From: a virus
UHGV virus genome: UHGV-1739818
Strand: one strand, 5' to 3'
Length of the DNA stretch: 14,972 nucleotides
This document shows positions 2 to 14,387 of this stretch, in pieces. The position numbers and the translations under genes are program-made. The notes below the pieces were generated by a model that was given only the letters and a program-made list of their open reading frames with translations, was not told the origin of the DNA and did no database searches. Each line of letters starts with the position of its first letter. The first letter of the stretch is position 1.

Positions 2-667
2 GAAGCTGCTAAGAACGATATGGACCCGAAATCGTTCGCTCAGGAGTACCTGGCCAGCTTTGAAAATATGTCCGGGCGCGTTTACTACCCGTTCGATCGT
101 AACGTGCATGTAAAACCGCTTCAGTTCAACCCTCGGTTGCCTATATGGGTAGGGCAGGACTTCAACATTGACCCGATGTCTTCAGTAATTTTGCAACCTC
201 AGCCAAATGGTGAGCTATGGGCAATTGATGAATTGGTGCTCTTTTCCTCTAACACGGCAGAGGTTTGTGATGAGCTTGAGAGACGCTTCTGGCGCTGGAA
301 ATCACAGATAACGGTATTTCCAGATCCGGCAGGTGCTTATCGCCAACATGCTCGCGGGGAGTCTGACGTCGACATATTCAAAGAGAAGGGATTCTTACGT
401 GTCGATTATTCGAAAAAGCACCCGCCAATTGCGGATCGTGTTAATGCTGTTAACCGAATGCTGATGACCGCATCTGGAGATATCCGGCTGTATATCGATC
501 CGAAGTGCAAGCATTTGATTGATTCACTGGAAAAAGTCATCTACAAGCCTGGAACACGAGATATGGATAAGACAGGTGGCATTGAGCATAGTGCAGACGC
601 ATTGGGCTATCCAGTACATCGTAGGTATCCAGTCAAAAACCGTGTTATTCTTGGTGGTTCTCGATAG
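2..667 (+). CDS. Terminase large subunit, C-terminal (nuclease-domain) portion; 5' end lies upstream of the window
   Basis: Frame is open from base 2 with no in-frame stop before the ATG at 20; stop TAG at 665-667. Acidic-residue pattern (WVGQDFNIDP, VFPDPAG, DIRLYIDP) resembles the RNaseH-like terminase nuclease domain. Sits immediately upstream of the portal gene. Confidence 0.7.
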   Translation, partial: EAAKNDMDPKSFAQEYLASFENMSGRVYYPFDRNVHVKPLQFNPRLPIWVGQDFNIDPMSSVILQPQPNGELWAIDELVLFSSNTAEVCDELERRFWRWKSQITVFPDPAGAYRQHARGESDVDIFKEKGFLRVDYSKKHPPIADRVNAVNRMLMTASGDIRLYIDPKCKHLIDSLEKVIYKPGTRDMDKTGGIEHSADALGYPVHRRYPVKNRVILGGSR

Positions 668-693
668 GTAAGTAATTATCTAAGGTTATTCAA

Positions 694-2268
694 ATGGAAT
701 TGAACGACAAACAAATTAAGGATCTGGTGGCGCGACGCCACCCGGAATACGAAAAGAAAAAAGAACATTGGGACTTCCTCGCCAGCACTTACGCTGGCGG
801 GCGTGGTTGGTTTACAGACAATATCTTTCGTTACTTTAAAGAGGGAGATCAGGAGTTTAAGGAGCGAGTTGAACGTGCTTATCGCTTCAACCACACTCGT
901 GAGGTGGTAAACCTCATCAACAAATATCTCTTTAAAGAAGACATTCATAGAAATATCGAAGAGGCACCAGAGCAGATCCGCAATTTCTGGAAACGTGCGA
1001 CTCGCCAGAATGCCTCTATTGACTCATTTATGGCCGCTATTGATTTGCAGTCGTCTATTTACGGTCGCATATGGGTTGTTGTCGATAGCACGATGAGTGG
1101 TGATGTTGAGTCAGTAGCTGACGAGAAAAAGAAAGATGCTCGCGCCTACGCCTACTGGATTTCACCTCAGCAAATGCTGGATGTGGCATGGGACGACGAC
1201 GGGAATATGTTGTGGGCGTTAATTGTGGAAGTCGCTCGTGATGACGCAGATCCTTTTACTTCTACAGGTCAGGAATACCAACGTTATCGTCTGTGGACAC
1301 AAAACGAGTGGTATCTGTTCCGTGAGGAAGTGAAGAAGGGCGCTGGTGGAGCAGGTCGCCGTCAGGCAAAAGTTATTTTAGAGGATAGCGGTGAGCATAA
1401 TCTCGGCGTAGTTCCTGTGTTTCCTGTTGATTGTATTGGAGAAAGTGAATCACCGTATTTCAGCCCATCGTTGATCGATGATATCGCTTATCTTGATCGT
1501 GCGGTTGCAAACTATCTGTCAAACCTTGATGCCATTATTCAGGATCAGACATTTAGCCAGTTGGCTATACCGGTACAGTCGCTTTTACCTGGTGATGAAA
1601 ACCACACTAAAGTGCTTGAAATGGGCACAAAGCGAGTCTTCACCTACGATTCTGAAGGTGGAAACCAGCCGTTTTATCTGTCACCAGACCCGAAACAAGC
1701 TCAGATGATCATCACTACGATTAAGACGGTGATTAACGAAATCTACCATTCAGTTGGTGTAGCTGGTGAGCGAACGAAGCAGGACAACGCACAGGGAATC
1801 GATAATTCATCTGGTGCCGCAAAAATGTATGACTTCCAGCGTGTAAATAGCTTGCTTGTCACAAAAGCAGAGCGTCTGGAAAGGGCTGAACGCCAAATCA
1901 TGCTACTGGTTGCGAAATGGATGGGGGTAGATCTGGACGAAGACCACTCTTTAATTGCATATCCAGAAAGTTTCGATATTCGTGGCCTTACTGATGAATT
2001 TTCTGTTGCCGAGAAACTGTCATTACTTCAGGCACCGGACTCTGTACGTCGTCACCAGATGGAAATGCTTATTGAGAAGATTTTCCCGAACATTACTGAG
2101 GCGATGAAAAAGGAATTTGATAAAGATCTCTTGAATTTTCCTCCAAAAAATGATCTAAATACCCTTGAAAATAAGTCGGTACTTACTTATGATCGTGGTG
2201 CAGCCCAAGAAAGCGGGCAAGATCAACCCCGAGGGAATGGGGACTCATCTACTCAAGAGAACGAGTGA
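694..2268 (+). CDS. Portal protein
   Basis: 524-aa ORF directly after the terminase gene with AAGG 8 nt upstream of the ATG; size and position are typical of portals, and the C-terminal tail is acidic. Family not verified. Confidence 0.65.
   Translation: MELNDKQIKDLVARRHPEYEKKKEHWDFLASTYAGGRGWFTDNIFRYFKEGDQEFKERVERAYRFNHTREVVNLINKYLFKEDIHRNIEEAPEQIRNFWKRATRQNASIDSFMAAIDLQSSIYGRIWVVVDSTMSGDVESVADEKKKDARAYAYWISPQQMLDVAWDDDGNMLWALIVEVARDDADPFTSTGQEYQRYRLWTQNEWYLFREEVKKGAGGAGRRQAKVILEDSGEHNLGVVPVFPVDCIGESESPYFSPSLIDDIAYLDRAVANYLSNLDAIIQDQTFSQLAIPVQSLLPGDENHTKVLEMGTKRVFTYDSEGGNQPFYLSPDPKQAQMIITTIKTVINEIYHSVGVAGERTKQDNAQGIDNSSGAAKMYDFQRVNSLLVTKAERLERAERQIMLLVAKWMGVDLDEDHSLIAYPESFDIRGLTDEFSVAEKLSLLQAPDSVRRHQMEMLIEKIFPNITEAMKKEFDKDLLNFPPKNDLNTLENKSVLTYDRGAAQESGQDQPRGNGDSSTQENE
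2172..2185. repeat. Gapped dyad TAAGT-cggt-ACTTA embedded in the 3' end of the portal coding sequence
   Basis: Read directly from the sequence; same gapped dyad as at 7629-7642. Lies about 105 nt upstream of the scaffold start codon. Confidence 0.5.
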
Positions 2269-2289: not shown

Positions 2290-3177
2290 ATGAATCTGTG
2301 GCAAATGCTTTTGGCCCGTCGTGGTCTGATGGATGTCGCTGAAGCGCATGAGCGTGGAGGCGCTGGCGGTGTAGCTGCTGATAATGAGCAGAGTACACAA
2401 GATCCTGACAAACAGGGTGAACAAAAAGAGCAGCCGAAGGGCGATGACGAATACGCTGGCATGACTCAGGAAGAGTTACTGGCCGAACTTCGTAAAACCA
2501 AGAAAGCTGGTGCTGAACTGCTGAAGGAGAACATGAAGCGCAAAGAGAAAGAGCGCACATTGGCCGATCAGCTTGCTCAGTACGGTGATATCGATCCGGC
2601 TCGTGCTCGCCAGCTTTTAGAAGCTGAACAGGCCGCAGAAAACGCACGTCGTGAGGCGGAGCAAGCTGAACTGGAGCGTCGTGGTGAGTTCGATGCTGTT
2701 AAAAAACAGATGATCGAAGCACACCAGGCAGAGCTGGCACAGCGTGACGAACGTTATGCAGCACTGGAAAGTGAAAACGCATCACTGAAATCTCAATTAG
2801 TCGAGATGACCGTGGGCGCTTCGTTCAGTAACTCTCTCTTCCTACGTGACAAAGTTCTGATGACCCCGGCAAAAGCCCGCGTGATCTACGGTTCTCATTT
2901 TGAAGTGGGTGAAGACGGTAGCGTAGTGGGTTATGACAAACCGGCAGGTCACAAAGAACGAGCTGTTCTGGTTGACGGTGAAGGTAAGCCGTTGCCGTTT
3001 GAATCCGCGATTGAACGCATTGTGCGGGCAGATCCGGAAGCTGACGCATTGATGCGTAGCGAAGCCAAGCAGGGTGTAGGCTCACATTCCAAATCGACCT
3101 ACACAATATCCCAACCGAAGAACAAGTCGACTATGGATAAGTTGGCCTCCGGTCTGGGGAAAATTGGACTTAAGTAA
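2290..3177 (+). CDS. Head scaffolding protein (putative)
   Basis: 295-aa ORF between portal and major capsid genes; highly charged, Ala/Glu/Arg/Gln-rich central segment predicted to be coiled coil (…AEQAAENARREAEQAELERRGEF…); SD AAAAGGA 6 nt upstream of the ATG. No protease motifs seen. Confidence 0.55.
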   Translation: MNLWQMLLARRGLMDVAEAHERGGAGGVAADNEQSTQDPDKQGEQKEQPKGDDEYAGMTQEELLAELRKTKKAGAELLKENMKRKEKERTLADQLAQYGDIDPARARQLLEAEQAAENARREAEQAELERRGEFDAVKKQMIEAHQAELAQRDERYAALESENASLKSQLVEMTVGASFSNSLFLRDKVLMTPAKARVIYGSHFEVGEDGSVVGYDKPAGHKERAVLVDGEGKPLPFESAIERIVRADPEADALMRSEAKQGVGSHSKSTYTISQPKNKSTMDKLASGLGKIGLK

Positions 3178-3202: not shown

Positions 3203-4078
3203 ATGCCATTACTGCGTGAAGAAGCTGAAAAGCTGTCTAACAACGAACTTGAACAGGGTGTGATCGAAACTATCATCGATCGCGATGACCTGTTTGCCAT
3301 CCTGCCTTTTATGAAAATTAATTCAAAGGCATATCTGTACAACCGTGAAAAAACGCTGAGTGAAGCTACCTTCATCGACGTTAACGACACCATCCCTGAA
3401 GGTGCAGCAACCTTCGAAGAATGCGTTGCGAAACTGCGTATTCTGGCTGGTGACGTAGACGTTGATAAATTCCTGGCGACCACTATGGCCGACACCAACA
3501 ACCAGTTGGCTATTCAGGTTCGTCAGAAAGTTAAAGGTCTGGCTCGTGCGTTCCGTCGCAACCTGATTTTGGGTGACTCCAGCTCCAACAACAAGGCGTT
3601 TGACGGCATTCCACGCCTGATGCACGCAGATCAGAAGATCGATATCGCCGGTGCATCTATGACTTTCTCTATGTTCGACGAACTGGTCGATGCGGTGAAA
3701 GATCTTGGTGCTGACTGCATCATGATGCGTTCAGAGCACCTGCGTGCTTACCGTGCGCTGCTGCGTACAGTAAACGTAGGTCCGTCTGAAATCATGATGG
3801 AGAACTTCGGTCGTCCGATGCTGTGTCATAACGGCGTTCCGTTCATCATCAACGACTTCATCCCGACCGATGCTGGCAAAGCAAGCATCTACTGCCTGCA
3901 TCTGTCAGAAGAGAACGGCGTTACTGGTCTGTATGGCGGCGACAACGCAGGTATCGTTGTTGAAAACATTGGTACTGTACAGAACAAAGACGCAGTACGT
4001 ACCCGTGTGAAGTGGTACTGCTCTCTGGCGAATAAGCACGATAAGGCTATCGCTGCACTGACCAATGTAAAAATTTAA
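3203..4078 (+). CDS. Major capsid protein (putative HK97-fold, no delta domain)
   Basis: 291-aa ORF after the scaffold gene with SD AAAGGGAA; strongly biased codon usage suggesting high expression; followed by an intrinsic terminator. Length fits a capsid protein that relies on a separate scaffold. Confidence 0.7.
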   Translation: MPLLREEAEKLSNNELEQGVIETIIDRDDLFAILPFMKINSKAYLYNREKTLSEATFIDVNDTIPEGAATFEECVAKLRILAGDVDVDKFLATTMADTNNQLAIQVRQKVKGLARAFRRNLILGDSSSNNKAFDGIPRLMHADQKIDIAGASMTFSMFDELVDAVKDLGADCIMMRSEHLRAYRALLRTVNVGPSEIMMENFGRPMLCHNGVPFIINDFIPTDAGKASIYCLHLSEENGVTGLYGGDNAGIVVENIGTVQNKDAVRTRVKWYCSLANKHDKAIAALTNVKI

Positions 4079-4087
4079 TCAGTGTGG

Positions 4088-4105
4088 TAGATAGGTAGTT
4101 ATCTA
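4088..4105. repeat. Inverted repeat TAGATA-N6-TATCTA between capsid stop and terminator
   Basis: tagata (4088-4093) is the reverse complement of tatcta (4100-4105). A related TTATCTA element occurs at 676-682 in the terminase-portal junction. Confidence 0.35.
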
Positions 4106-4114
4106 TGTTAAAGG

Positions 4115-4138
4115 GTGGGCTATACGCCCACTTTTTTT
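4115..4138 (+). terminator. Rho-independent terminator downstream of the major capsid gene
   Basis: GTGGGC (4115-4120), loop TATAC, GCCCAC (4126-4131), followed by T7 (4132-4138). Confidence 0.7.
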
Positions 4139-4151
4139 GGAGGAGCGAGAA

Positions 4152-5072
4152 ATGCCAGAACAAAAGATGAAGATTACGGAAGAGACATTTTCGGATTTTA
4201 CGGGGCATATGTGCCGTGCCGGATTTACCAATTCTATCTCCGATGAACCTTTAACCGAGCGGCAACAAAGTCAGCTATCTGCTTGTTTGCAGGCGGTTCC
4301 CCTCTCCCAATCCGTAAACATAACCCCGGCTTCACCGTCAGTTTTGGTTGGGAAAACTGTTCAACTTAGTGCAGGTATTAGTATGGGTAAGAGTGCCAGT
4401 TCATTCACCTGGAAGTCAGCCAATGACCAAATTGCAACCGTTAACGGCACTGGATTAGTAACTGGCGTAGCACCAGGCAAAGTAAAAATTACTGCAACTG
4501 ATCAGGAAACCCAGCTTTCCGCTTCAGTGGAAGTCACCGTAAATCCGGTAGCCGTTCAATCCGTAACGGTAACGCCAGAATCAACGTCTGTTGAGAAAGG
4601 GAAATCAGTCAGTCTGAAAGCGAATGTTCAGCCGTCAAATGCGACGAATAAGGCTGTTGCCTGGTCTTCCAAAAATGAAGATAAGGCAACGGTAGACCAG
4701 AGCGGGAACGTTACTGGTGTAGAAGTTGGCACTGCGACGATTGAGATCGTTTCCCAAGATGGCAGCAAAAAGGGAACTGCAACGGTGGAAGTAACTGCGC
4801 CTGTTGTGGCTGTTACCGGCGTCGAAATCGACCCAAATAGCACAACCGTTGAGGCAAACAAAACTGTTCAGCTGACCGCAAATGTCGAGCCGGCAGGAGC
4901 AACAAATAAAACCGTTACTTGGGAATCCAAAAATACCGAATTTGCAACGGTGGATAGCGAAACCGGTGTTGTAACTGGCGTTGCGGCTGGTACTGCCACA
5001 ATCGAGGTTACTACCCAAGATGGTAGCCACAAAGCGACAGCGACCGTAGAAGTCACTGCTGCACAGGAATAA
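4152..5072 (+). CDS. Protein with at least three tandem Big_2 (bacterial Ig-like) domains; candidate capsid decoration or virion surface protein
   Basis: ATG at 4152 with GGAGGAG 7 nt upstream (the track start at 4137 is a TTG lying in the terminator T-tract). Repeated segments of type …TATVDQSGNVTGVEVGTATIEIVSQDGSKKGTATVEVTA… are characteristic of Big_2 domains. Confidence 0.7.
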   Translation: MPEQKMKITEETFSDFTGHMCRAGFTNSISDEPLTERQQSQLSACLQAVPLSQSVNITPASPSVLVGKTVQLSAGISMGKSASSFTWKSANDQIATVNGTGLVTGVAPGKVKITATDQETQLSASVEVTVNPVAVQSVTVTPESTSVEKGKSVSLKANVQPSNATNKAVAWSSKNEDKATVDQSGNVTGVEVGTATIEIVSQDGSKKGTATVEVTAPVVAVTGVEIDPNSTTVEANKTVQLTANVEPAGATNKTVTWESKNTEFATVDSETGVVTGVAAGTATIEVTTQDGSHKATATVEVTAAQE

Positions 5073-5080
5073 TCAATATT

Positions 5081-5098
5081 GGGCGGCGAAAGCCGCCC
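5081..5098 (+). other. Stable GNRA-tetraloop hairpin without a U-tract
   Basis: GGGCGGC-GAAA-GCCGCCC, a perfect 7-bp GC stem, 9 nt after the Big_2 gene stop. Followed by ATGTAGAG rather than a T-run, so not a canonical terminator. Confidence 0.4.
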
Positions 5099-5116
5099 AT
5101 GTAGAGAGAATGCGTT

Positions 5117-5551
5117 ATGAAACCAGCAAAAATTGTTTTATTAGAACCGCAATTTTCCGGTTATTCGGGAATGTTGTGCGGCGTTCAGTTCGAGAACGGG
5201 GTGTCCGTAGCGGAGTTGCCTTTTATCGATCAGCAAAGGATTTGTGCCTCAATGCGAGCATCAACAGTCGAGGGCAAAAATGTTTCTCCGTCTGCCGCAT
5301 ACAGTGATCGTGGCGAGTTGACCGCAGACCTGATTACCGAGCCAGCAGCACCTGACATTGTGCCAATGAAACGTGGGACACCAGATGAACCGGCCAAACA
5401 GATCCAGACTTTCACACGAGAAGAGTTGGAGTCAATTGCAGACAATGAAGGCATTGCCGGTCTACGTGTGATTGGTAATCAGGTTGGTGTCAAAGCGAAA
5501 GGAATTGTCGAGATGATTGAAGGCATCCTGAAAGCACAAGGCGGTGAGTAA
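5117..5551 (+). CDS. Hypothetical protein (144 aa)
   Basis: ORF whose stop overlaps the next start (TAATG at 5549-5553), indicating translational coupling; purine-rich stretch upstream. C-terminal 40 aa loosely resemble a helix-extended-helix motif (low confidence). Confidence 0.5.
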   Translation: MKPAKIVLLEPQFSGYSGMLCGVQFENGVSVAELPFIDQQRICASMRASTVEGKNVSPSAAYSDRGELTADLITEPAAPDIVPMKRGTPDEPAKQIQTFTREELESIADNEGIAGLRVIGNQVGVKAKGIVEMIEGILKAQGGE

Positions 5552-6463: not shown

Positions 6464-6770
6464 ATGAATATTTCGTGGCAAACAGAAATTGCGATCTACC
6501 GCTTTGGCGCAAAGAACGTTTACGGCGAGGCGCAATTACAATTCGTCAGGAAGACGAATGTCGGCGTGGTTAAGTTCGAACAGAGTAATGAGAAATCGTC
6601 AGTTCGTGCTGATAGATGCTGTGTTAGTTGTCCCTTTAGAAGCGGCTGTACAACTTGATGATGTGCTGATCCTTGAAGGTCAAAAATTAAAGGTGTCCAG
6701 TGTTCATCGCCGTTGGGGGCTACGAGGAAGACCTGGGCATCTTGAAGTGGGGGCGAATATATGGGTCTGA
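6464..6770 (+). CDS. Head-tail adaptor (head closure) protein, apparently interrupted by a +1 frame change near 6596-6602
   Basis: Frame 2 from ATG 6464 gives MNISWQTEIAIYRFGAKNVYGEAQLQFVRKTNVGVVKFEQSNEKS and then implausible Cys-rich text to the stop at 6658. Frame 0 is implausible upstream but protein-like from about 6600 (QFVLIDAVLVVPLEAAVQLDDVLILEGQKLKVSSVHRRWGLRGRPGHLEVGANIWV) to the stop at 6770. The conceptual fusion is about 100 aa with features typical of small adaptor proteins. Confidence 0.45.
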
Positions 6771-7235: not shown

Positions 7236-7619
7236 GTGTTTATCGAAGCGTTTGCAAGTTTGATGCAGAAGGCAAAGATTGGCACGGTCGGGACTGACAT
7301 TTTCTGTCACTACTTGCCTGCCAATGTGAAATCTGGCGTCCTGCTTATTAACCCAAATACCGGTATCAGCATCGATCATGAGCTACAGGGCTTTTACCAC
7401 GAATCATTCACAATAATTGTGCGTGGTTCGTCAATTACTACGACGGTTGAGAAAGCCAATAAAATCATTGAGATGTTTCCAGTAGAGGAAACGGAATCTG
7501 GTGGTGTTTATTTTCGACTGGTACGACCGATGGCGATGCCAATCATTTATCCCAAAAATGATGGAGCATTAATAGAAGCAGGCATTCCTGTTGAATTTGC
7601 TGGCTATTTATTGAATTAA
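7236..7619 (+). CDS. Tail terminator / tail completion protein (putative, lambda gpU position)
   Basis: Start placed at GTG 7236, which overlaps the upstream stop (TAATGTG) and has GAGAGG 5 nt upstream. The track start at 7113 would overlap the previous gene by about 120 nt in another frame. Confidence 0.45.
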   Translation: MFIEAFASLMQKAKIGTVGTDIFCHYLPANVKSGVLLINPNTGISIDHELQGFYHESFTIIVRGSSITTTVEKANKIIEMFPVEETESGGVYFRLVRPMAMPIIYPKNDGALIEAGIPVEFAGYLLN

Positions 7620-7640
7620 GTCAATCGGTAAGTATATACT
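7611..7640 (+). promoter_or_regulatory. Candidate sigma70-like promoter upstream of the major tail gene
   Basis: TTGAAT (7611-7616), then TATATA (7633-7638, spacer 16) or TATACT (7635-7640, spacer 18). The -10 region lies inside the 16-bp palindrome. Confidence 0.3.
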
Positions 7641-7643
7641 TAC
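7628..7643. repeat. Perfect 16-bp palindrome GTAAGTATATACTTAC (TAAGT-N4-ACTTA core)
   Basis: Read directly; 50 nt upstream of the major tail start codon. Candidate operator for a dimeric DNA-binding protein. Confidence 0.6.
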
Positions 7644-7693
7644 TGTTAGCGCAATGAATGCGTAGAATTAACGGAAAAAGGAGTTTTCCATCA

Positions 7694-8440
7694 ATGTCTA
7701 ATACCCATGTAAAAAACATCAAACTTGGTGCCTGTAAGGTGTCGTTTGGTGGTGTGGATTTGGGTTACACCAAAGGTGGTGTTCAGGTTGAAGTAGCCAC
7801 TGAAACGCTGAAAGTCACTGTCGACCAGCACGGCCAGACAATTATGTCAGAGCTGGTGCAGGGTCGTAACATTACCATTACTGCGCCGCTGGCCGAGTCT
7901 GTGTTGAAAAATATGGTCGATCTGATGCCGGGGTCTACTCTGAACGAAGACGACAACGCTGTGACCATCACTTCCGCACAGGGTGTCAACCTGATCGACG
8001 TAGCCAAAGAGCTGGTTCTGACTCCGCAGGACACTACCGACTACGTTCTGACCATTCCGAAAGCTGCGACCGCAGGTAACTTCACCATGACTTACCAGTC
8101 TGATGATGTTCGTGTGTTCTCTGTTCAGTTCAGCGCATACCCTGATGACGAAGGCGTTCTGGGAAGAATGAGCGGCCCTAAACCGGTAAAAACCGTGTCG
8201 ATCAAACCGGAATCTCCAACTGTAAAAGCAGGGGAGACTGTGCAACTGACAGCCGAAATCACTCCAGCTGATGCCGCAGACAAAACCGGTGTTTGGGAAT
8301 CCGAAGACCAGGAAAAGGCCACGGTAGATCAAACGGGTCTGGTACGTGGTGTGGCGCAGGGTTCTACAAATATCTCCTTCACCAGCAATAGCGGTGGTAA
8401 GAAGGCTACTAAGTCAGTAACGATTAACTCCGCAGGTTAA
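7694..8440 (+). CDS. Major tail (tube) protein with C-terminal Big_2 Ig-like domain
   Basis: ATG 7694 with AAGGAG 10 nt upstream (the track start at 7658 lacks an SD). C-terminal about 90 aa is a Big_2-type domain (…VQLTAEITPADAADKTGVWESEDQEKATVDQTGLVRGVAQGSTNISFT…), as in lambda gpV. Located before the G/GT pair. Confidence 0.7.
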   Translation: MSNTHVKNIKLGACKVSFGGVDLGYTKGGVQVEVATETLKVTVDQHGQTIMSELVQGRNITITAPLAESVLKNMVDLMPGSTLNEDDNAVTITSAQGVNLIDVAKELVLTPQDTTDYVLTIPKAATAGNFTMTYQSDDVRVFSVQFSAYPDDEGVLGRMSGPKPVKTVSIKPESPTVKAGETVQLTAEITPADAADKTGVWESEDQEKATVDQTGLVRGVAQGSTNISFTSNSGGKKATKSVTINSAG

Positions 8441-8453
8441 TCAGTAATTAAGC

Positions 8454-8479
8454 AGAGGCTCAGGATGGGCCTCTCTTTT
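8454..8479 (+). terminator. Candidate weak intrinsic terminator after the major tail gene
   Basis: AGAGGC (8454-8459), 9-nt loop, GCCTCT (8469-8474), then CTTTT. Short U-tract, so possibly partial. Confidence 0.35.
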
Positions 8480-8495
8480 AAAAGGATTTTAACCA

Positions 8496-8813
8496 ATGAC
8501 CAAATTACTCGATCTCGATTCCATTCTGCCTCCGAAGAAAAGCATCAAATTTGGCGGTCAGGAATATCCCATCGTTGAAATGACGGTAGGTCTGTTCGTT
8601 TCCATCAAGCAGATGGAAGGCAAAGATCTCATGAACATGTCTCCTGTTGAGCAAGTGACAGCTTATGCAGATCTGGTTCGTAAGGTTATCCCTTCAGTAC
8701 CTGACGAAGTTCTTGAAAAACTGACTGTTCCGCAACTCCAGCAGATCTTCACCTTCGCTATGGAAGTGATTGATGAAGAAAACGAAAAAGCGGCTGGCGA
8801 AGGGGCAAAGTAA
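8496..8813 (+). CDS. Tail assembly chaperone (lambda gpG-like)
   Basis: 105-aa acidic-C-terminus ORF immediately upstream of the tape measure gene, with AAGGA 9 nt upstream; its 3' end overlaps a -1 frame ORF. Confidence 0.7.
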   Translation: MTKLLDLDSILPPKKSIKFGGQEYPIVEMTVGLFVSIKQMEGKDLMNMSPVEQVTAYADLVRKVIPSVPDEVLEKLTVPQLQQIFTFAMEVIDEENEKAAGEGAK

Positions 8814-9163
8814 TTTCCCGCGATGAATCCGGGACAAGGACCGTCTCAATAGATCTCGGATTCTATTTCAGTCGTGTAGTTGCTCACTACGCCGTGTCGC
8901 CATTAGAGCTACTGAACGTTCCTCTCACGATGTTCTGGATGCTCAGTCGCAATATAGACCGTCTGCGTGCGGAAGAGGATGTCCGCAACTTACAAGTCGC
9001 TCGTGCGTCCCAGGCGGATGGCGAGGCTGTGAAGGCGTTCATGGAGGGTTTGCAACTCAGGATTGGAAGACCAGTCGTAACAGATAAAGTCTACGATCCA
9101 AGCCAGGATAAGGCAGACCCTGACGCCAAAGAGCAACTGATGCAAATATTTGGCAGAGGATGA
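8777..9163 (+). CDS. T-domain reading frame of a G-T tail assembly chaperone fusion, expressed by -1 programmed frameshift from 8496..8813
   Basis: The -1 frame is open from 8777 (after TGA at 8774-8776) to 9163 and overlaps the last 37 nt of the G-like ORF. There is no SD before its first internal start (GTG 8894). Its stop overlaps the tape measure start region. Confidence 0.6.
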   Translation, partial: RKRKSGWRRGKVISRDESGTRTVSIDLGFYFSRVVAHYAVSPLELLNVPLTMFWMLSRNIDRLRAEEDVRNLQVARASQADGEAVKAFMEGLQLRIGRPVVTDKVYDPSQDKADPDAKEQLMQIFGRG

Positions 9164-9170
9164 CAAGGGA

Positions 9171-10856
9171 ATGTCACAAAACGTAGAGTTTATCCTGTCG
9201 CTGGAAGACAAACAGTTTACAGCGTCAATCGATCGTGCGGGGAAACTGCTTACTCGATTTGGTGAGCAGGTAACAAAGCCTGCTCAAAAAATCCAAACCT
9301 TTGAACGCTCTTTGGGTTCGGTCGCCCGTATCATTGGCGTTCTGGAAAGCAAGCTCGATTCTACGGCAGATAAACTACAGGATGTAGCTGCCGGTTTTGA
9401 GCTTGCTTCAGATGCTACGCGTAAAATGCGTGGCAACATCACCAGCCTCAATTCTGGTCTTAAAGCCCTGATTGAGCGCGTCGATACGACAACTTCTTCA
9501 GTAGATAAACTCACCGCGTCATTACGTAAAGTGCAATCAGAGCTAAATGATTTCTCTGATTGGGCGACCTATGCAAGCAAAAGCGCAAGCCGCTTTGGTA
9601 CGGAGGTCAAAGAAGCCTCTGCGTCCGTGAGTGGCATGAATACGCGCCTTAATACCACGACGAAGCGACTCAGTAATTGGGGTGTCACAACGAGTCAGGC
9701 TGCCGAGGGACTGAAAAAGGTTCGTGAGCAGATGGACGAAGTTATCGGACGTCAGCAACTGATTAGCAAGCCGGTACGCGTTCGTACATCTGGAAGTGGC
9801 GATGGTGGTAGCGGGCGGCGTAGCGGCGCTTCTGGCCATAGCGGTAAAAGTAACGAAGGAGGTATGTTCTCTGGCCTTCGTGGCAACATTTTCCTGCTTG
9901 GCGAGATCGGAGATGCAGCCAGAACGGTTACTGACATCATGTTTGGGTGGCAGAAGCCTATTGTTGAAGCTGCGGCCGAAATGGAACGTATGCGGGTGAT
10001 GCTTCGAGGGTTGAATAAGGAGAAGTCCAACCCGGGCCAGGCTGCCGCTGATGATATGAAGTACATCGTAGACATGGCGCAAAATGCGCCGTTCGCGATG
10101 CAGGCGTTAACAGATTCCTTCGTGAAGTTTCGTTCTGCTGGCTTAGATCCAACCGATGGTTCTCTGAAGGCGCTGGTGGACTCCGTTGCTCGTTTTGGTG
10201 GTGATAGTGAGCTGTTGAAACGTGCGGCTGTGGCCGTTCAGCAGATGTCCGGTAAGGGCGTTGTGTCAATGGAAGAGCTACGTCAGCAATTAGGTGAAGC
10301 CGTTCCTAACGCGATGCAGGCAATGGCAGACGCCGCAGGCATCACTATGGGGGAACTGACTAAAGCCGTTGCCAGCGGTACGGTTGAGGCAAAACAGGCG
10401 TTGTCTCTGATGTTTGTTGGTCTGCGTGCGGAGAATGAGAACGCAGCGAAAGACATGATGCAAACCTACACAGGTGCGCTGGCGCAACTTCAGACGTCAT
10501 TCACGTTATTTGCTGATCGGGTTGGTCAGGCCGGATATCTGGATTCTCTATCGAAGGGGATGAAAGAACTGGCTTCAATCATGAATAGCGCCGAAGGGAT
10601 TTCGTTTGCCAATTCTTTAGGCTCGGGGTTAACGACGGCAATCGATGGGTTGCGTCAGCTTGCTCAATGGTTAGCAAAGAACCAAGAGCTGGTAATTAAT
10701 CTCGGTAAGGTCGTGGCCGCGATGGTTGCGTTCAAACTGATGCGAGCAGGGATCATGGGGGTAGTTGGCGCAGGCAGCCAGATGGTTAGCACCTTTGCCA
10801 CGATGGCGACCGCCATACAGACTCCATTTAACCTCGGCGCTACAGCAGTAAGATGA
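9171..10856 (+). CDS. Tail tape measure protein, N-terminal/major segment
   Basis: ATG 9171 with GAGGA 10 nt upstream (the track start at 9150 is a TTG without SD). Coiled-coil N-terminus, Gly/Ser-rich linker, and a region typical of tape-measure core domains (…NAPFAMQALTDSFVKFRSAGLDPTDG…); hydrophobic C-terminal segment. Confidence 0.8.
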   Translation: MSQNVEFILSLEDKQFTASIDRAGKLLTRFGEQVTKPAQKIQTFERSLGSVARIIGVLESKLDSTADKLQDVAAGFELASDATRKMRGNITSLNSGLKALIERVDTTTSSVDKLTASLRKVQSELNDFSDWATYASKSASRFGTEVKEASASVSGMNTRLNTTTKRLSNWGVTTSQAAEGLKKVREQMDEVIGRQQLISKPVRVRTSGSGDGGSGRRSGASGHSGKSNEGGMFSGLRGNIFLLGEIGDAARTVTDIMFGWQKPIVEAAAEMERMRVMLRGLNKEKSNPGQAAADDMKYIVDMAQNAPFAMQALTDSFVKFRSAGLDPTDGSLKALVDSVARFGGDSELLKRAAVAVQQMSGKGVVSMEELRQQLGEAVPNAMQAMADAAGITMGELTKAVASGTVEAKQALSLMFVGLRAENENAAKDMMQTYTGALAQLQTSFTLFADRVGQAGYLDSLSKGMKELASIMNSAEGISFANSLGSGLTTAIDGLRQLAQWLAKNQELVINLGKVVAAMVAFKLMRAGIMGVVGAGSQMVSTFATMATAIQTPFNLGATAVR

Positions 10857-11860
10857 GCTTCTCCAGCCTATCTCAGTCCATTTTGAAAGATATCACCAAT
10901 ATGGTCGTGAAGTCGCAAATCACGCTGCCTCTAATGAACATGTTGGGGATGGGAACCACCGCAGCTGGTAGTTCACAGAGTGGCAATTTGCTCACTGGAG
11001 TTGCTTCCGCCGTTGCCAATCAAGGGGTACGAATGGGCAACACTGTTAACGGCGACAAGTCGGTGGGAGAAGCCACGAAGGAGACGTCCAGTTCGGTAAC
11101 TGGATTGGGGCAAACAACACAGCAGACCACCAGCGCAATTGGCACTGCAACAAATGCGATTGGTAGCTGGGTATCAGGGCTATTTGATAGCACCGAAGCC
11201 AAAGATGCTGAAACAAAAGCAGTGAAGGACTCCATCTTCTCGATGCAGAACCTCAGCTCTGTTACCGGCGCTCTGTCTGCCGCGTTTGCAATGCTTGGAG
11301 CTAATGCTTCCGGCTCTGGTAATAAGTGGTTGAATTTCGGCGCGACAGTTGCATCTGGTTTGGTTTCAGTATGGGCTGGTGGTGGATTCGATGGATTGAT
11401 GTCCGGTTCTTCTGGCTCAACTTCCGGGTTCAACAATCTGACCAGTTCTGCTGCCGATGGCACGAATGGTATTCCTGCAATTCCGAAGTTTGCAAATGGT
11501 GGCATATTCGGAAAAGACGGCGTGATCCCGCTCCGGGCATACCAGAAAGGCGGTATCGCCAACTCACCTCAATTGGCGTTGTTTGGGGAAGGCGATATGA
11601 ATGAGGCGTATGTTCCATTGCCTGATGGTCGAACAATCCCTGTAACGCTCAGTACCGATGGTATGAGTGGAGGAGGAAATGTTCTTTCTCCGGTATCAAT
11701 TGAGATCAACGTCCATAGTGACGGTAGCACAACTGAATCCGGCGATACAGAAAGCATATGGAACAATGCCGCTCAACGGATGAAAGCAATCGCGCTTGAG
11801 ACTATCGCTCAAGAGAAACGCCCTGGCGGATCACTCAACCCAAACACTCAACGTAACTAA
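10853..11860 (+). CDS. Tape measure protein, C-terminal segment, encoded as a separate ORF in the -1 frame
   Basis: Starts at ATG 10853 overlapping the upstream stop (ATGA). Gly/Ser/Thr-rich with a FANGGIFGKDGVIPL…GEGDMNEAYVPLPDGRTIPV block resembling conserved tape-measure C-terminal motifs. Confidence 0.65.
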   Translation: MSFSSLSQSILKDITNMVVKSQITLPLMNMLGMGTTAAGSSQSGNLLTGVASAVANQGVRMGNTVNGDKSVGEATKETSSSVTGLGQTTQQTTSAIGTATNAIGSWVSGLFDSTEAKDAETKAVKDSIFSMQNLSSVTGALSAAFAMLGANASGSGNKWLNFGATVASGLVSVWAGGGFDGLMSGSSGSTSGFNNLTSSAADGTNGIPAIPKFANGGIFGKDGVIPLRAYQKGGIANSPQLALFGEGDMNEAYVPLPDGRTIPVTLSTDGMSGGGNVLSPVSIEINVHSDGSTTESGDTESIWNNAAQRMKAIALETIAQEKRPGGSLNPNTQRN

Positions 11861-12238: not shown

Positions 12239-12275
12239 GTATCTGGATAAGTAAGTACTAATTTACTATCATTGT

Positions 12276-12298
12276 GGCGCTGACAGGATGTTAGCGCC
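12276..12298 (+). other. Hairpin in the M-L intergenic spacer
   Basis: GGCGCT (12276-12281), 11-nt loop, AGCGCC (12293-12298), followed by TACTTATTTC. Confidence 0.3.
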
Positions 12299-12320
12299 TA
12301 CTTATTTCAAGGATGAAACA

Positions 12321-13019
12321 ATGGGAATTAAAGCTGATATTCAGAGCTTATCTCCCTCTGCACTCATTGAGTTGTTCGTACTGGATATGTCGAACACAAC
12401 TTCAGGGGGGAAGCTATTCTTCCACGCCGGAACAAACGAACTGATGCAACCGGTCGTCTGGCAAGGAGTGACATACGAGCCGTGGCCAATCAAAGCATCA
12501 GGCTTTGACAAAACTGGCCAGGGAACGTTGCCACGTCCAAAAATTCAGGTATCGAACTTTGCCGGAACTGTCTCTGCGGAAGTTCAGGCAAACGACGATC
12601 TTGTTGGCTGCCGCATTATTCGCAAGATGACGCTGGCTCGCTTCCTCGATGCCGTTAATTTTAAAGACGGCAACCCAACAGCAGATCCAAACCAACATTT
12701 CCCGGATGAAATGTGGTTTATCGAACAGAAAACTCTCGAAACTCATCAGGTTGTCGAGTTTGAATTGTCCAGTGTGTTCGATTTGATGGGGGTGCAACTG
12801 CCGTATCGTCAGATCATTAAAAACACCTGCCCGTGGAAATACCGAGGGCCAGAATGCGGCTATACCGGTCCATATTTCGACAAAAATAACCAGCAGACGT
12901 CTATGTCTGGTGCTGATTACTGCACAAAACGTTATGACGCCTGTAATGCGCGTCGGAATTATTTTGCCAACGGAGTGATCCATTTTGGCGGGTTTATTGG
13001 AGCTACGCGATATGGGTAA
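12321..13019 (+). CDS. Minor tail protein, lambda gpL homologue (tail tip, Fe-S cysteine motif)
   Basis: ATG 12321 with AAGGA 7 nt upstream (the track start at 12288 adds 11 poorly supported residues). Blocks VVWQGVTYEPWPIKASGFDKTGQGTLPRPKIQVSNF, RFLDAVNF.DGNP.ADPNQ and CPWKYRGPECGYTGP…C…C match lambda gpL as I recall it. Confidence 0.85.
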   Translation: MGIKADIQSLSPSALIELFVLDMSNTTSGGKLFFHAGTNELMQPVVWQGVTYEPWPIKASGFDKTGQGTLPRPKIQVSNFAGTVSAEVQANDDLVGCRIIRKMTLARFLDAVNFKDGNPTADPNQHFPDEMWFIEQKTLETHQVVEFELSSVFDLMGVQLPYRQIIKNTCPWKYRGPECGYTGPYFDKNNQQTSMSGADYCTKRYDACNARRNYFANGVIHFGGFIGATRYG

Positions 13020-13809
13020 TAAAGCAATCCCTGAGCTTGGCTCTGATGTTATGCAGCAAATCTATCTCTGCGCCATAAATCGCTACCCTAATGAAGCGTG
13101 TGGCTTTCTGGTGAGAACTAATGGCGACAAATATCGCTTTATGGAAGCGCGAAATGTTTCGGAGAACCCGCAGAACACTTTTGTAATGCACGTTGACGAC
13201 ATTATGGCGGCGGAGGATGCAGGTGACGTAATCGCAATCTGGCATTCACATACTGATGAATCAGCAGAAGCATCTGATGCCGATCGTGCAGGCTGTGAAG
13301 CGACGGAAGTTCCGTGGATGATTCTGGCTATTCGCAAGAATGTTGAGGGAGATGCCCCTTTCCATTTTAGCGAGATGAATGTGATCACACCTGATGGTTT
13401 CGAAATGCCATACCTGGGTAGACCGTATGTATTTGGCGTATTCGATTGCTGGATGTTGTGTCGGGACTATTTGAAGCGTGAGTTTAACGTCGAGCTTAAC
13501 CCGAACGCACACCTGCATATTCCATCGTGGTACACCGGCGATAACGACATTCTCGACCAGAACTACCGAAACGAGGGATTGGTACGGCTTGCACCTGGAA
13601 CAGAGCCTCAACGTGGGGACGTCTTCTTTATTCAATACGGAAAAATGCCTGACCACTGTGCGGTTTATATCGGCGATGGAATGATTCTTCATCACCAGAT
13701 CGACCGCCTTAGTTGTCGTGCTTATTACGGCGGGATGTATCAGAAACATACGACGCATCACTTGCGTCACAGAGACTTGCTCAAGGGAGATGAGACGTGT
13801 CTGAGTTAG
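13012..13809 (+). CDS. Tail assembly protein, lambda gpK homologue (MPN/JAMM plus NlpC/P60 domains)
   Basis: ATG 13012 overlaps the gpL-like stop, GGAG 9 nt upstream. N-terminal YPNEACGFLV and an intact JAMM motif HSHTDESAEASDAD (H-x-H-x7-S-x2-D, 13243-13284); C-terminal FDCWM Cys plus downstream His typical of NlpC/P60. Confidence 0.85.
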   Translation: MGNKAIPELGSDVMQQIYLCAINRYPNEACGFLVRTNGDKYRFMEARNVSENPQNTFVMHVDDIMAAEDAGDVIAIWHSHTDESAEASDADRAGCEATEVPWMILAIRKNVEGDAPFHFSEMNVITPDGFEMPYLGRPYVFGVFDCWMLCRDYLKREFNVELNPNAHLHIPSWYTGDNDILDQNYRNEGLVRLAPGTEPQRGDVFFIQYGKMPDHCAVYIGDGMILHHQIDRLSCRAYYGGMYQKHTTHHLRHRDLLKGDETCLS

Positions 13810-14387
13810 TTCATGTGCAGCTTGGCGGCCCTATGGCCAAACATTTTGGCCGCCACTGGCATCTAAAGGTGCGTAATACAAAACAGGCTCTGGATTTAAT
13901 TGAGGCCAACAAGCCTGGGTTTAAAGCATGGATGAAGCGCAATATCAAAACCTATGACAGATACCACATCCAGATCACCAATAAACAGGGCCACAAGTGG
14001 TCTGTGGACGAGAGTGAATATCAGATGATGGGGCAGTCTGACAATATTGCAAAAATCCGCATTACCCCTGTTCCGCGAGGAAGTGGTGGATCTGCTTTTG
14101 GATGGTTTCAGACGGTTGTTGGAGCAGTATTAATGGTTGCCTCGATATGGGTGCCCGCTCTTGCGCCTCTCGGTTTGTCACTGATGATGGGCGGTATAGC
14201 GCAAATCATATCTCCGCAAGCCACTAACGAAAGTGTGAGGCAGGCGGATAACTCGAACTCTTATTACTTTGATGGACCTCAAAACACAACAAACCAGGGG
14301 AACCCTGTACAGCTTATCTATGGCGAGGAAATTTTAGTTGGCTCACAGGTCGTGAGTTCTTCTATCACCATCGACCAGCTTATGTAA
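13797..14387 (+). CDS. Tail assembly protein, lambda gpI homologue
   Basis: GTG start overlapping the gpK-like stop, GGGAG upstream. Central hydrophobic segment plus C-terminal …NSYYFDGPQNTTNQGNPVQLIYGEEILVGSQVVSSSITIDQ resemble lambda gpI; standard position. Confidence 0.8.
   Translation: MSELVHVQLGGPMAKHFGRHWHLKVRNTKQALDLIEANKPGFKAWMKRNIKTYDRYHIQITNKQGHKWSVDESEYQMMGQSDNIAKIRITPVPRGSGGSAFGWFQTVVGAVLMVASIWVPALAPLGLSLMMGGIAQIISPQATNESVRQADNSNSYYFDGPQNTTNQGNPVQLIYGEEILVGSQVVSSSITIDQLM

Follow-up and report, generated by a model that had tools for sequence, protein, structure and literature searches.

The 14,972-nt stretch of the UHGV virus genome UHGV-1739818 analyzed in this study (the window) is part of the structural module of an SSU5/Cyrano-type phage-plasmid. 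The window was 96.5% identical to Escherichia phage Cyrano (pLF82), 83% identical to Salmonella phage SSU5, about 77% identical to Klebsiella relatives and 99.9% identical to the E. coli plasmid NZ_CP073997. About 900 plasmids in PLSDB match the region. In the gap between the Tc1 tail completion gene and the tail tube gene, a palindrome overlaps promoter-like hexamers. Is this junction an internal promoter of the tail tube gene, and is the palindrome the site through which such a promoter is controlled?

Sequence and conservation of the tail tube junction

The palindrome GTAAGTATATACTTAC is perfect over 16 bp, as the sequence-only reading had claimed, and it ends 50 nt upstream of the tail tube ATG in a 74-nt gap that follows the Tc1 stop codon (7617–7619); both distances agree with that reading (Table 1). 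The hexamers TTGAAT, TATATA (7633–7638) and TATACT were also correctly located, and the last codons of Tc1 contain the first of them. The description of the surrounding operon as otherwise tightly coupled held roughly, with other gaps of 44–80 nt at 4078–4137, 5072–5117, 8440–8496 and 8813–8894.

Table 1. Positions of the tail tube junction elements and of related dyads in the window.
Feature	Position	Strand	Remarks
Dyad in the terminase large subunit/portal gap	665–682		GATAGGTAAGTAATTATCTA; orthologous sites at Cyrano 2021 and SSU5 2032
Dyad after the major capsid gene	4092–4105		TAGGTAGTTATCTA; followed by an intrinsic terminator (4113–4129)
Tc1 tail completion gene	7236–7619	+	3' end encodes ...EFAGYLLN and stop; Cyrano orthologue CYRAN_11 (8630–9013)
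−35-like hexamer TTGAAT	7611–7616	+	TTG invariant in 49/49
Palindrome	7628–7643		Core GTAAGTATATACTTA (7628–7642); family dyad with central ATAT
−10-like hexamer TATACT	7635–7640	+	Central ATAT plus right arm; unchanged in 48/49
Predicted transcription start	7647–7648	+	From sigma-70 geometry, 7–8 nt past the −10
RNA hairpin 2, GCGCA-AUGAA-UGCGU	7649–7663	+	Candidate 5'-terminal stabilizer
RNA hairpin 3, GGAAAA-AGGAG-UUUUCC	7673–7689	+	Shine-Dalgarno AGGAG (7679–7683) in loop
Tail tube gene, C-terminal Ig-like domain	7694–8440	+	Cyrano orthologue CYRAN_12
Dyad at the minor tail genes M/L	12248–12265		TAAGTAAGTACTAATTTA; followed by a hairpin (12276–12298)

Perfect palindromes of at least 16 bp were contained in 24% of the dinucleotide-preserving shuffles of the window. 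TTGAAT and TATACT match the promoter consensus at 9 of 12 positions and are separated by 18 nt, which is a long spacing within the 16–18 nt range of sigma-70 promoters; the match itself is statistically ordinary, with 9 promoter-like matches of 9/12 in the window vs. 16.7 expected from shuffles. The occurrence alone of a 16-bp palindrome or of a 9/12 promoter match is at chance level, and their significance comes from conservation and context.

Conservation was assessed with 49 unique sequences of the orthologous junction, which came from phage records, plasmids, GTDB genomes and IMG/VR contigs, covered Escherichia, Salmonella, Klebsiella, Yersinia, Kluyvera and metagenomes and had overall identities of 77–100%. 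An exact 14-mer scan of IMG/VR returned mostly chance matches on unrelated contigs and was usable once filtered for SSU5 context, and the scan of genome contigs for the junction yielded 5 loci only. The core GTAAGTATATACTTA was identical in 42 of the 49 sequences, and the remaining 7 differed by one transition each. The 3' C of the outer pair was A or T in some relatives. Although the 16-bp unit is perfect in the window, its outermost G:C pair is therefore not kept in relatives, and the conserved unit is the 15-mer GTAAGTATATACTTA, which holds a 14-bp palindrome (7629–7642). Both the 8-nt spacer that separates the dyad from the stop codon and the downstream flank varied in sequence without a single indel among the 49 relatives. 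Natural variants that break the dyad were few, including G>A at 7632 in several lineages and A>T in the Klebsiella phage pJN2-26. These results confirm that the palindrome is real and near-invariant, with SSU5-like phage-plasmids that contain it numbering in the hundreds.

The promoter-like hexamers were also conserved, and the spacing between them was always 18 nt among the 49 unique relatives. In Klebsiella, a 1-nt insertion shifts the frame at the C-terminus of Tc1, which reads YFIELNK instead of YLLN before the stop, and the nucleotides TTATTGAA are kept. Thus, the constraint on this segment is on the DNA and not on the protein. A natural rearrangement was found in the L034/L214 lineage, whose members include the IMG/VR contig L034 and the K. 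pneumoniae plasmid CP027615. In this lineage, Tc1 is separated from the tail gene by a strong intrinsic terminator, a gene encoding about 150 amino acid residues whose start resembles a signal peptide, and another GC hairpin, all of them inserted. The tail gene is immediately preceded by TTGTAA and TATACT, again 18 nt apart, an identical dyad and both leader hairpins; the region of the −35-like TTGTAA is non-coding there. The dyad, the promoter-like hexamers and the hairpins thus travel with the tail gene as a module placed where a promoter is needed. The tail gene of the lineage has its Ig domain in another frame, and the lineage may be decaying.

Taken as 84 nt, the gap folds as three hairpins (z = −2.1). 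The helix formed by the palindrome (helix 1) showed no compensatory change in its core, and its outer pairs were unpaired in 15–24 of 30 sequences. The palindrome matched no Rfam family and was absent from the scan for intrinsic terminators; its AU-rich stem is followed by TGTTAGCGC. Different from helix 1, helices 2 and 3 have the covariation expected of structured RNA. Hairpin 2 had both-side changes at 4 of its 5 pairs and 93% of its cells paired, and its counterpart at the same place in L034 is TGTCA-AGA-TGACA. For hairpin 3, 100% of the cells were paired, with a compensatory change from A-U to U-A in L034 (GGTAAA...TTTACC). In a transcript beginning at 7647, as predicted, hairpin 2 would be only 2 nt from the 5' end. 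Hairpins at the 5' terminus protect E. coli mRNAs from 5'-end-dependent decay, and by this established knowledge hairpin 2 would have a stabilizing effect.

A family of dyads at intergenic positions

The sequence-only reading proposed that the dyad is a binding site for a dimeric regulator. Such a site is plausible, but it would not be private to the tail gene. The search of the remaining genome showed that TAAGT-N4-ACTTA is not unique in complete Cyrano and that the palindrome is one of about 25 dispersed sites. The strict pattern TRRGT-N4-ACYYA was found at 13 intergenic positions in Cyrano and 15 in SSU5, for which shuffles gave an expectation of 0.2 and a maximum of 3. With one mismatch at most, there were about 25 intergenic sites and 2–3 sites in coding sequences, where intergenic DNA is 12–13% of the genome; in SSU5, the corresponding numbers were 21 vs. 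3.

The canonical element of this family is a compact palindrome with the halves TAGGTAAGT and ACTTACCTA, which is clearest in pJN2-26, and its compact form is TAGGTAAGTACTTACCTA. The core of the family is GTAAG-N2/N6-CTTAC, the arms consist of 4-nt units, and the favored distances from AAGT to ACTT are 0, 4 and 8 nt. The spacing of 2 or 6 nt from GTAAG to CTTAC is awkward for a single rigid dimer. The copy at the tail gene is the canonical element with ATAT inserted centrally, and this central ATAT creates TATACT. The centers of the other copies differ between Cyrano and SSU5, whereas that of the tail gene copy is fixed, which fits an extra constraint imposed by a putative −10.

Family sites were found in every lytic module, including packaging, head, tail, lysis, replication and nucleotide metabolism. 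Often they directly adjoin the stop codon of the preceding gene; they are located before or after GC hairpins or terminators, and some are only 3–18 nt from the next ATG. The arrangement of dyad and terminator at window position 4092 was also found in Cyrano, SSU5 and pJN2-26 and after the tail gene of a distant Acinetobacter baumannii phage-plasmid. This phage-plasmid shares only one 93-nt stretch with the window, at 74% identity. GTAAG-N2-CTTA(C/T) flanks its tail tube gene, and the dyad keeps its place upstream of that gene even in Acinetobacter. Given that the core is present in Acinetobacter, the family element is old. Searches of the literature found no prior description of the repeat and no transcription start data for SSU5-like elements, and the dyad family is apparently previously undescribed.

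To which level the family belongs was addressed by folding all 54 sites of Cyrano and SSU5 on both strands. The sense strand was more stable for 27 sites and the antisense strand for 25, G.T and T.G were equally frequent (27 each), and the mean folding energy was −5 kcal/mol, which is weak. The lack of a sense-strand bias, the equality of G.T and T.G and the lack of covariation in helix 1 rule out RNA hairpins as the common nature of the family. Thus, the element is a dyad at the DNA level, most simply a putative protein-binding site. Moreover, 8/29 and 8/25 family sites overlapped sigma-70-like spans, compared with about 5% of random intergenic positions; because the extended arms read TTGATA and TATCAT, this enrichment is partly intrinsic to the motif. 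Depending on the copy, the dyad covers the −35, the −10 or the spacer that separates them, and such a varying register would fit occlusion by a repressor better than activation. At the tail gene, the dyad of 14–16 bp is centered on the upstream edge of the −10-like hexamer, so that dyad symmetry overlaps the predicted core promoter as in repressor operators.

Expression at the junction and its explanation

Gene-level expression of Cyrano, given as log2(FPKM+5), was taken from the RNA-seq of LF82 (PMC9928086, S1 Table), which was published when Cyrano was named and covers, at a modest read depth, lysogens that were uninduced or carried by macrophages. After 6 h in macrophages (MB6), log2 values of about 4.0 were given for CYRAN_8-10, which are the three genes preceding Tc1; Tc1 itself had 5.9, the tail tube gene 8.4 and the gene after it 7.6, and values of about 5 followed (PMC9928086). 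The step-up of 2.5 log2 (5.8-fold) at the junction between Tc1 and the tail tube gene was the 8th largest among 98 adjacent co-oriented junctions. In medium at 6 h (B6), the order was reversed, with 5.7 for Tc1 and 4.1 for the tail tube gene, a step of −1.6 (PMC9928086). Thus, the ratio of Tc1 to tail tube mRNA is not fixed. In MB6, the capsid and tail tube genes rise and most of the late operon is near background; the tail tube gene was co-induced with other genes that follow dyads, namely MCP, CYRAN_56 and CYRAN_60. The step of 2.5 log2 is compatible with a new promoter or with processing and differential stability.

Across the genome, gaps with a dyad surpassed all other junctions in the size of their expression discontinuities (p = 0.004). 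However, their steps were not larger than those of other gaps of at least 25 nt (p = 0.23) and went both up and down; at the M/L junction of Cyrano, for instance, which carries the dyad of window position 12248, expression falls by 1.9 to 3.8 log2. With gap size controlled, a general prediction of expression steps by family dyads is unsupported, and the family as a whole marks boundaries of transcription units and not promoters specifically.

We give about an even chance to the explanation that the tail tube gene has an internal promoter at this junction and that this promoter is regulated through the dyad. TTGAAT and TATACT would be recognized by the sigma-70 RNA polymerase of the host, transcription would start near 7647–7648, the small GC hairpin at the head of the transcript would protect its 5' end, and the second hairpin would show the Shine-Dalgarno sequence in its loop. 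Together, the promoter and both hairpins would raise the amount and the lifetime of the mRNA that encodes the most abundant tail protein. The dyad, with its arms GTAAG and CTTAC, would be a DNA-level binding site of the dispersed family. Given that the central ATAT makes the −10, a protein bound to the dyad would cover the −10 and gate the promoter, and repression is the likelier direction. In the sequence-only reading, the region was proposed as an internal promoter-operator. The promoter part is supported by the conserved −35 and −10, the frame change in Klebsiella, the L034 module, the hairpins and the RNA-seq step, whereas the operator part is plausible and has the status of a candidate.

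The observations can also be read at the RNA level, where the three hairpins would act within the long late transcript, the AU-rich palindrome region would let an endonuclease enter or would attenuate transcription weakly, hairpin 2 would shield the resulting 5' end, and processing and differential stability would raise the tail mRNA in a way that resembles intercistronic processing in papBA or malEFG. We regard this as unlikely. The covariation of hairpins 2 and 3 and the folding of the gap into three hairpins would suit it, the step-up in MB6 fits differential stability equally well, the drop in B6 suggests some termination or decay, and several family dyads precede GC hairpins or terminators (window positions 4092 and 12248). 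The palindrome itself, however, lacks covariation and has broken outer pairs, its family folds weakly and has no sense bias, and in MB6 the tail gene was about 20-fold above the genes three positions upstream, which is hard to achieve by stability alone. Moreover, this explanation leaves the DNA-level conservation of the −35 unexplained, and the module persists downstream of the strong terminator in L034/L214. A further explanation is that the palindrome is a generic intergenic boundary element without a promoter role at this position: the tail gene would be served by an upstream late promoter, recombination or a structural or partition-like protein acting genome-wide would keep the copies similar, and the −35 and −10 would come from AT-richness. 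Against it, the TTG of the −35 and its 18-nt distance to the −10 are conserved independent of the coding frame, the tail gene copy is far more conserved than the other copies, its center included, the mRNA step depends on condition, and even the Acinetobacter phage-plasmid has a dyad ahead of its tail tube gene. On the other hand, about 25 sites per genome in all lytic modules, some of which leave no room for a promoter and leader before the ATG, agree with a generic element, as do the ordinary 9/12 match and the failure of the sites to predict expression steps better than other gaps. Overall, we consider a generic element quite improbable as the explanation of this junction.

Very improbable, in our view, is a late promoter of the P1 type, at which a phage activator would bind the AAGT...ACTT dyad beside a −10 as a positive site and recruit RNA polymerase where a true −35 is missing. 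The half-sites of the dyad are identical to those of P1 late promoters, and Cyrano, SSU5 and pJN2-26 have an exact P1-type box, AAGT(A/G/C)ACTT, immediately before terS. Moreover, the small conserved DNA-binding gene CYRAN_123 is placed as lpa is in P1, and MCP, CYRAN_56 and CYRAN_60 are induced together with the tail gene in MB6. Against these points, the half-sites are separated by N4 (by 0 or 8 nt elsewhere in the family) and not by N1, no −10 follows 4 nt downstream, a reasonable conserved −35 is present, and the position of the dyads relative to promoter-like hexamers varies, which is rarely tolerated by activators. In addition, no homologue of Lpa was detected by tblastn, whose best match had an E value of 0.29, or with PHROGs, where phrog_1704 (Lpa) was hit by 0 of 9 candidate regulators.

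Returning to the regulated promoter, a broader proposal, which we hold tentatively and at well below even chance, is that the 25–30 dyads are putative sites of a deeply conserved regulator of the SSU5 supergroup that gates the promoters of the capsid gene, the tail tube gene, CYRAN_56 and CYRAN_60. Such sites would punctuate the lytic genome at the boundaries of transcription units, and the gated promoters could fire while the remainder of the late operon is silent. Several proteins were considered as its reader. The promoter region of CYRAN_45, the annotated repressor, contains GGTAAG-TG-CTTACC. However, CYRAN_45 is absent from SSU5 and its Klebsiella homologues are only 56% identical, yet the dyads are conserved. 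Given that SSU5 lacks CYRAN_45 and has the family at orthologous positions, CYRAN_45 is excluded as the cognate repressor. CYRAN_123 and CYRAN_114 are core proteins found together with the family in about 800 enterobacterial plasmids; searches in Acinetobacter detected neither of them. The first, CYRAN_123, is a small DNA-binding protein encoded directly upstream of the terminase genes, and CYRAN_114 is a full-length FljA-family protein (Pfam E = 1e-80). The reader could be CYRAN_123 or the universally conserved CYRAN_114. A link to FljA through fliC found no support, as the 5' leader of E. coli fliC is without a GTAAG/CTTAC dyad.

Phage-plasmids of the SSU5 type are found very frequently in clinical Klebsiella, E. 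coli, Enterobacter, Salmonella and Yersinia pestis (pMT1) and carry resistance genes, and their gene regulation is essentially uncharacterized. A conserved and testable promoter-operator at the tail tube gene would open a first way to study how these elements silence about 100 kb of lytic genes as plasmids and then turn them on, and the genome-wide set of dyads would extend this approach to the whole element. Such regulation would also explain the expression of some structural genes in macrophage-borne lysogens without virion production. If the promoter is true, the compact cassette of promoter, 5' hairpin and hairpin with a Shine-Dalgarno loop would be a useful natural expression module.

Comparison with known systems

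The RcsAB box, NarL heptamers, SlmA site, Fur box, LexA box and P22 c2 operator presumably all differ from the dyad in key positions or geometry. The leader hairpins have closer counterparts. Similar to 5' stabilizers of the ompA leader type, hairpin 2 is at most 2 nt from the predicted 5' end, and hairpin 3 is similar to hairpins that present the Shine-Dalgarno sequence in the loop. In the PeSL cassettes of the T4 type, an early sigma-70-like promoter and a stem-loop are repeated together at gene boundaries. The cassettes of dyad and GC hairpin at window positions 4092, 7629 and 12248 resemble these cassettes and other junctions of terminator and promoter; different from PeSL, however, the dyad of the SSU5 family is specific and conserved, and it may come before or after the hairpins.

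Similar to the stoperators of L5/Bxb1 and the 22-bp repeats of T1/Stevie, which number 16 to 30 short intergenic copies in early and late regions (PMC9283540, PMC4319613), the family has many copies in short intergenic gaps throughout the genome. The repeats of those phages are asymmetric and oriented with transcription, and those of L5 are bound by the immunity repressor as a monomer. In contrast, the sites of the SSU5-type family are palindromic with variable arm spacing, they are not asymmetric sites of one orientation bound by an immunity repressor, and the annotated repressor is excluded as their reader.

The annotated late promoters of P1 have AAGTGACTT or AAGTTACTT (AAGT-N1-ACTT) 4 nt upstream of the −10 (PMC10695390). 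The AAGT and ACTT half-sites of this Lpa-dependent "−22 box", AAGTNACTT, are identical to those of the tail gene dyad. P1 is also an enterobacterial phage-plasmid with many internal transcription units and boxes upstream of structural genes. However, the P1 box is a strict 9-mer that is followed by the −10 after 4 nt and has no −35, whereas the tail gene dyad has arms separated by N4 (0 or 8 nt in other copies), a −10 inside the dyad and a −35. No AAGTNACTT is centered near −22 at the tail gene dyad, where the spacing is N4, and at the position 4 nt after ACTT the relatives have TTAGCG, TTGGCA or TTGTGT in place of a P1-type −10. Different from the P1 box, the SSU5-type family is also found in the early and replication modules. 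Given the different geometry and the lack of a detected Lpa homologue, membership in the P1 Lpa system was rejected on spacing, −10 position and homology, and the likeness is a resemblance. The regulator system proposed here would be related in its logic to P1 Lpa/C1 or to the L5 stoperators and would be distinct from both.

Further members of the dyad family

The dyad upstream of the tail tube gene belongs to a dispersed, mostly intergenic palindrome family, and further members are listed in the table together with the remaining features of this part. The dyad in the portal gene was the sole well-conserved family copy found in a coding region, and it was kept in the phage-plasmids Cyrano (position 3528), SSU5 (3545) and pJN2-26 (4094). 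In the Acinetobacter baumannii plasmid pABA-1fe1, the upstream dyad was preceded by a TTGGCA located 23.5 nt from the dyad centre, which is near the 24.5 nt of the window, and the downstream dyad was perfectly palindromic (14+14), with a terminator after it. The Cyrano GGTAAG-TG-CTTACC dyad directly followed a promoter predicted to drive the repressor gene, and additional GGTAAG/CTTACC half-sites were also found in the same region.

Features identified in the window and in related elements
Feature	Location	Context
Strict family dyad TAAGTCGGTACTTACTTA	Window 2172-2189	Within portal gene, ~95 nt 5' of portal stop codon
GTAAG-N2-CTTA(C/T) dyads	pABA-1fe1 (L215) 2444-2465 and 3036-3065	In the gaps on either side of the tail tube gene
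GGTAAG-TG-CTTACC	Cyrano 42575-42825, between CYRAN_45 and CYRAN_46	Immunity-like region
Moron-like insertion	L034 2226-2790; L214 1842-2400	Between Tc1 (tail completion) and the tail gene
Long inverted repeat, GCCTGC.TCTGTATATAT ... ATATATACGGAAGCAGGC	Cyrano 108340-108379 joined to 1-20	Equivalents in SSU5 and pJN2-26
Iteron-like repeats CTACAGTGGATA / TATAGTGGATA	Cyrano 60400-62400	Around repA; 5-8 copies

Differences in structural genes

Compared with Cyrano, the tape measure gene of the window (9150-11860) possessed an internal deletion of 1,886 nt, a length not divisible by 3, whose junction was near 10850 and whose missing segment corresponded to Cyrano 12246-14131. As a result, two overlapping ORFs (9150-10856 and 10853-11860) were found in place of a single 4.6-kb gene. 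The element with this deletion may be tail-defective or, alternatively, the assembly may have collapsed there. A smaller difference of 38 nt was found between window 6608-6615 and Cyrano 7971-8002, within the annotated region of the head closure gene Hc1. Given that the gene annotated in this region is shorter in SSU5 than in Cyrano, the N-terminal extension of Cyrano Hc1 may be non-coding.

The insertion shared by L034, an IMG/VR contig, and L214, a K. pneumoniae plasmid (CP027615), consisted of a strong terminator, a gene of ~150 aa and a hairpin (GTGGGGG...CCCCCAC), in that order. The encoded protein began with a signal-peptide-like MKKTFIALTL. Moreover, in this lineage (L034 2909-3660) a stop codon after ...LSAPK closed the tail tube domain, and the Ig-like domain ran on in a different frame. 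This arrangement may reflect programmed frameshifting, which would add the Ig domain, or the gene may be a pseudogene.

Expression of Cyrano genes and CYRAN_114

Previous RNA-seq results showed that after 6 h in macrophages CYRAN_5, 12-13, 56-57 and 60-62 were up 4-6 log2 relative to LB, and that the terminase, portal, neck, tape measure and tip genes were near background (PMC9928086). CYRAN_46 also showed strong induction within macrophages. At 6 h, expression of selected Cyrano structural genes in macrophages is partial and non-productive.

The product of CYRAN_114 (Cyrano L210:780-1301, outside the window), annotated as a transcriptional regulator, is a full-length member of the FljA family (Pfam Flag1_repress, E=1e-80), whose proteins prevent fliC mRNA from being translated. 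The CYRAN_114 gene was found in 835 plasmids, with a genus distribution matching that of the tail region. Thus, CYRAN_114 is a core gene of this phage-plasmid group, not an occasional moron.

Long inverted repeat and candidate plasmid origin

The long inverted repeat was present in three copies per genome, of which the other two in Cyrano were at ~31160 and ~78085. The copy immediately 5' of terS contained at its centre an exact box, AAGT(A/G/C)ACTT, of the P1 type associated with Lpa, the late-promoter activator. The iteron-like repeats around Cyrano repA did not occur in coding DNA. They probably constitute the plasmid origin, and they are similar to DnaA-box-like units.
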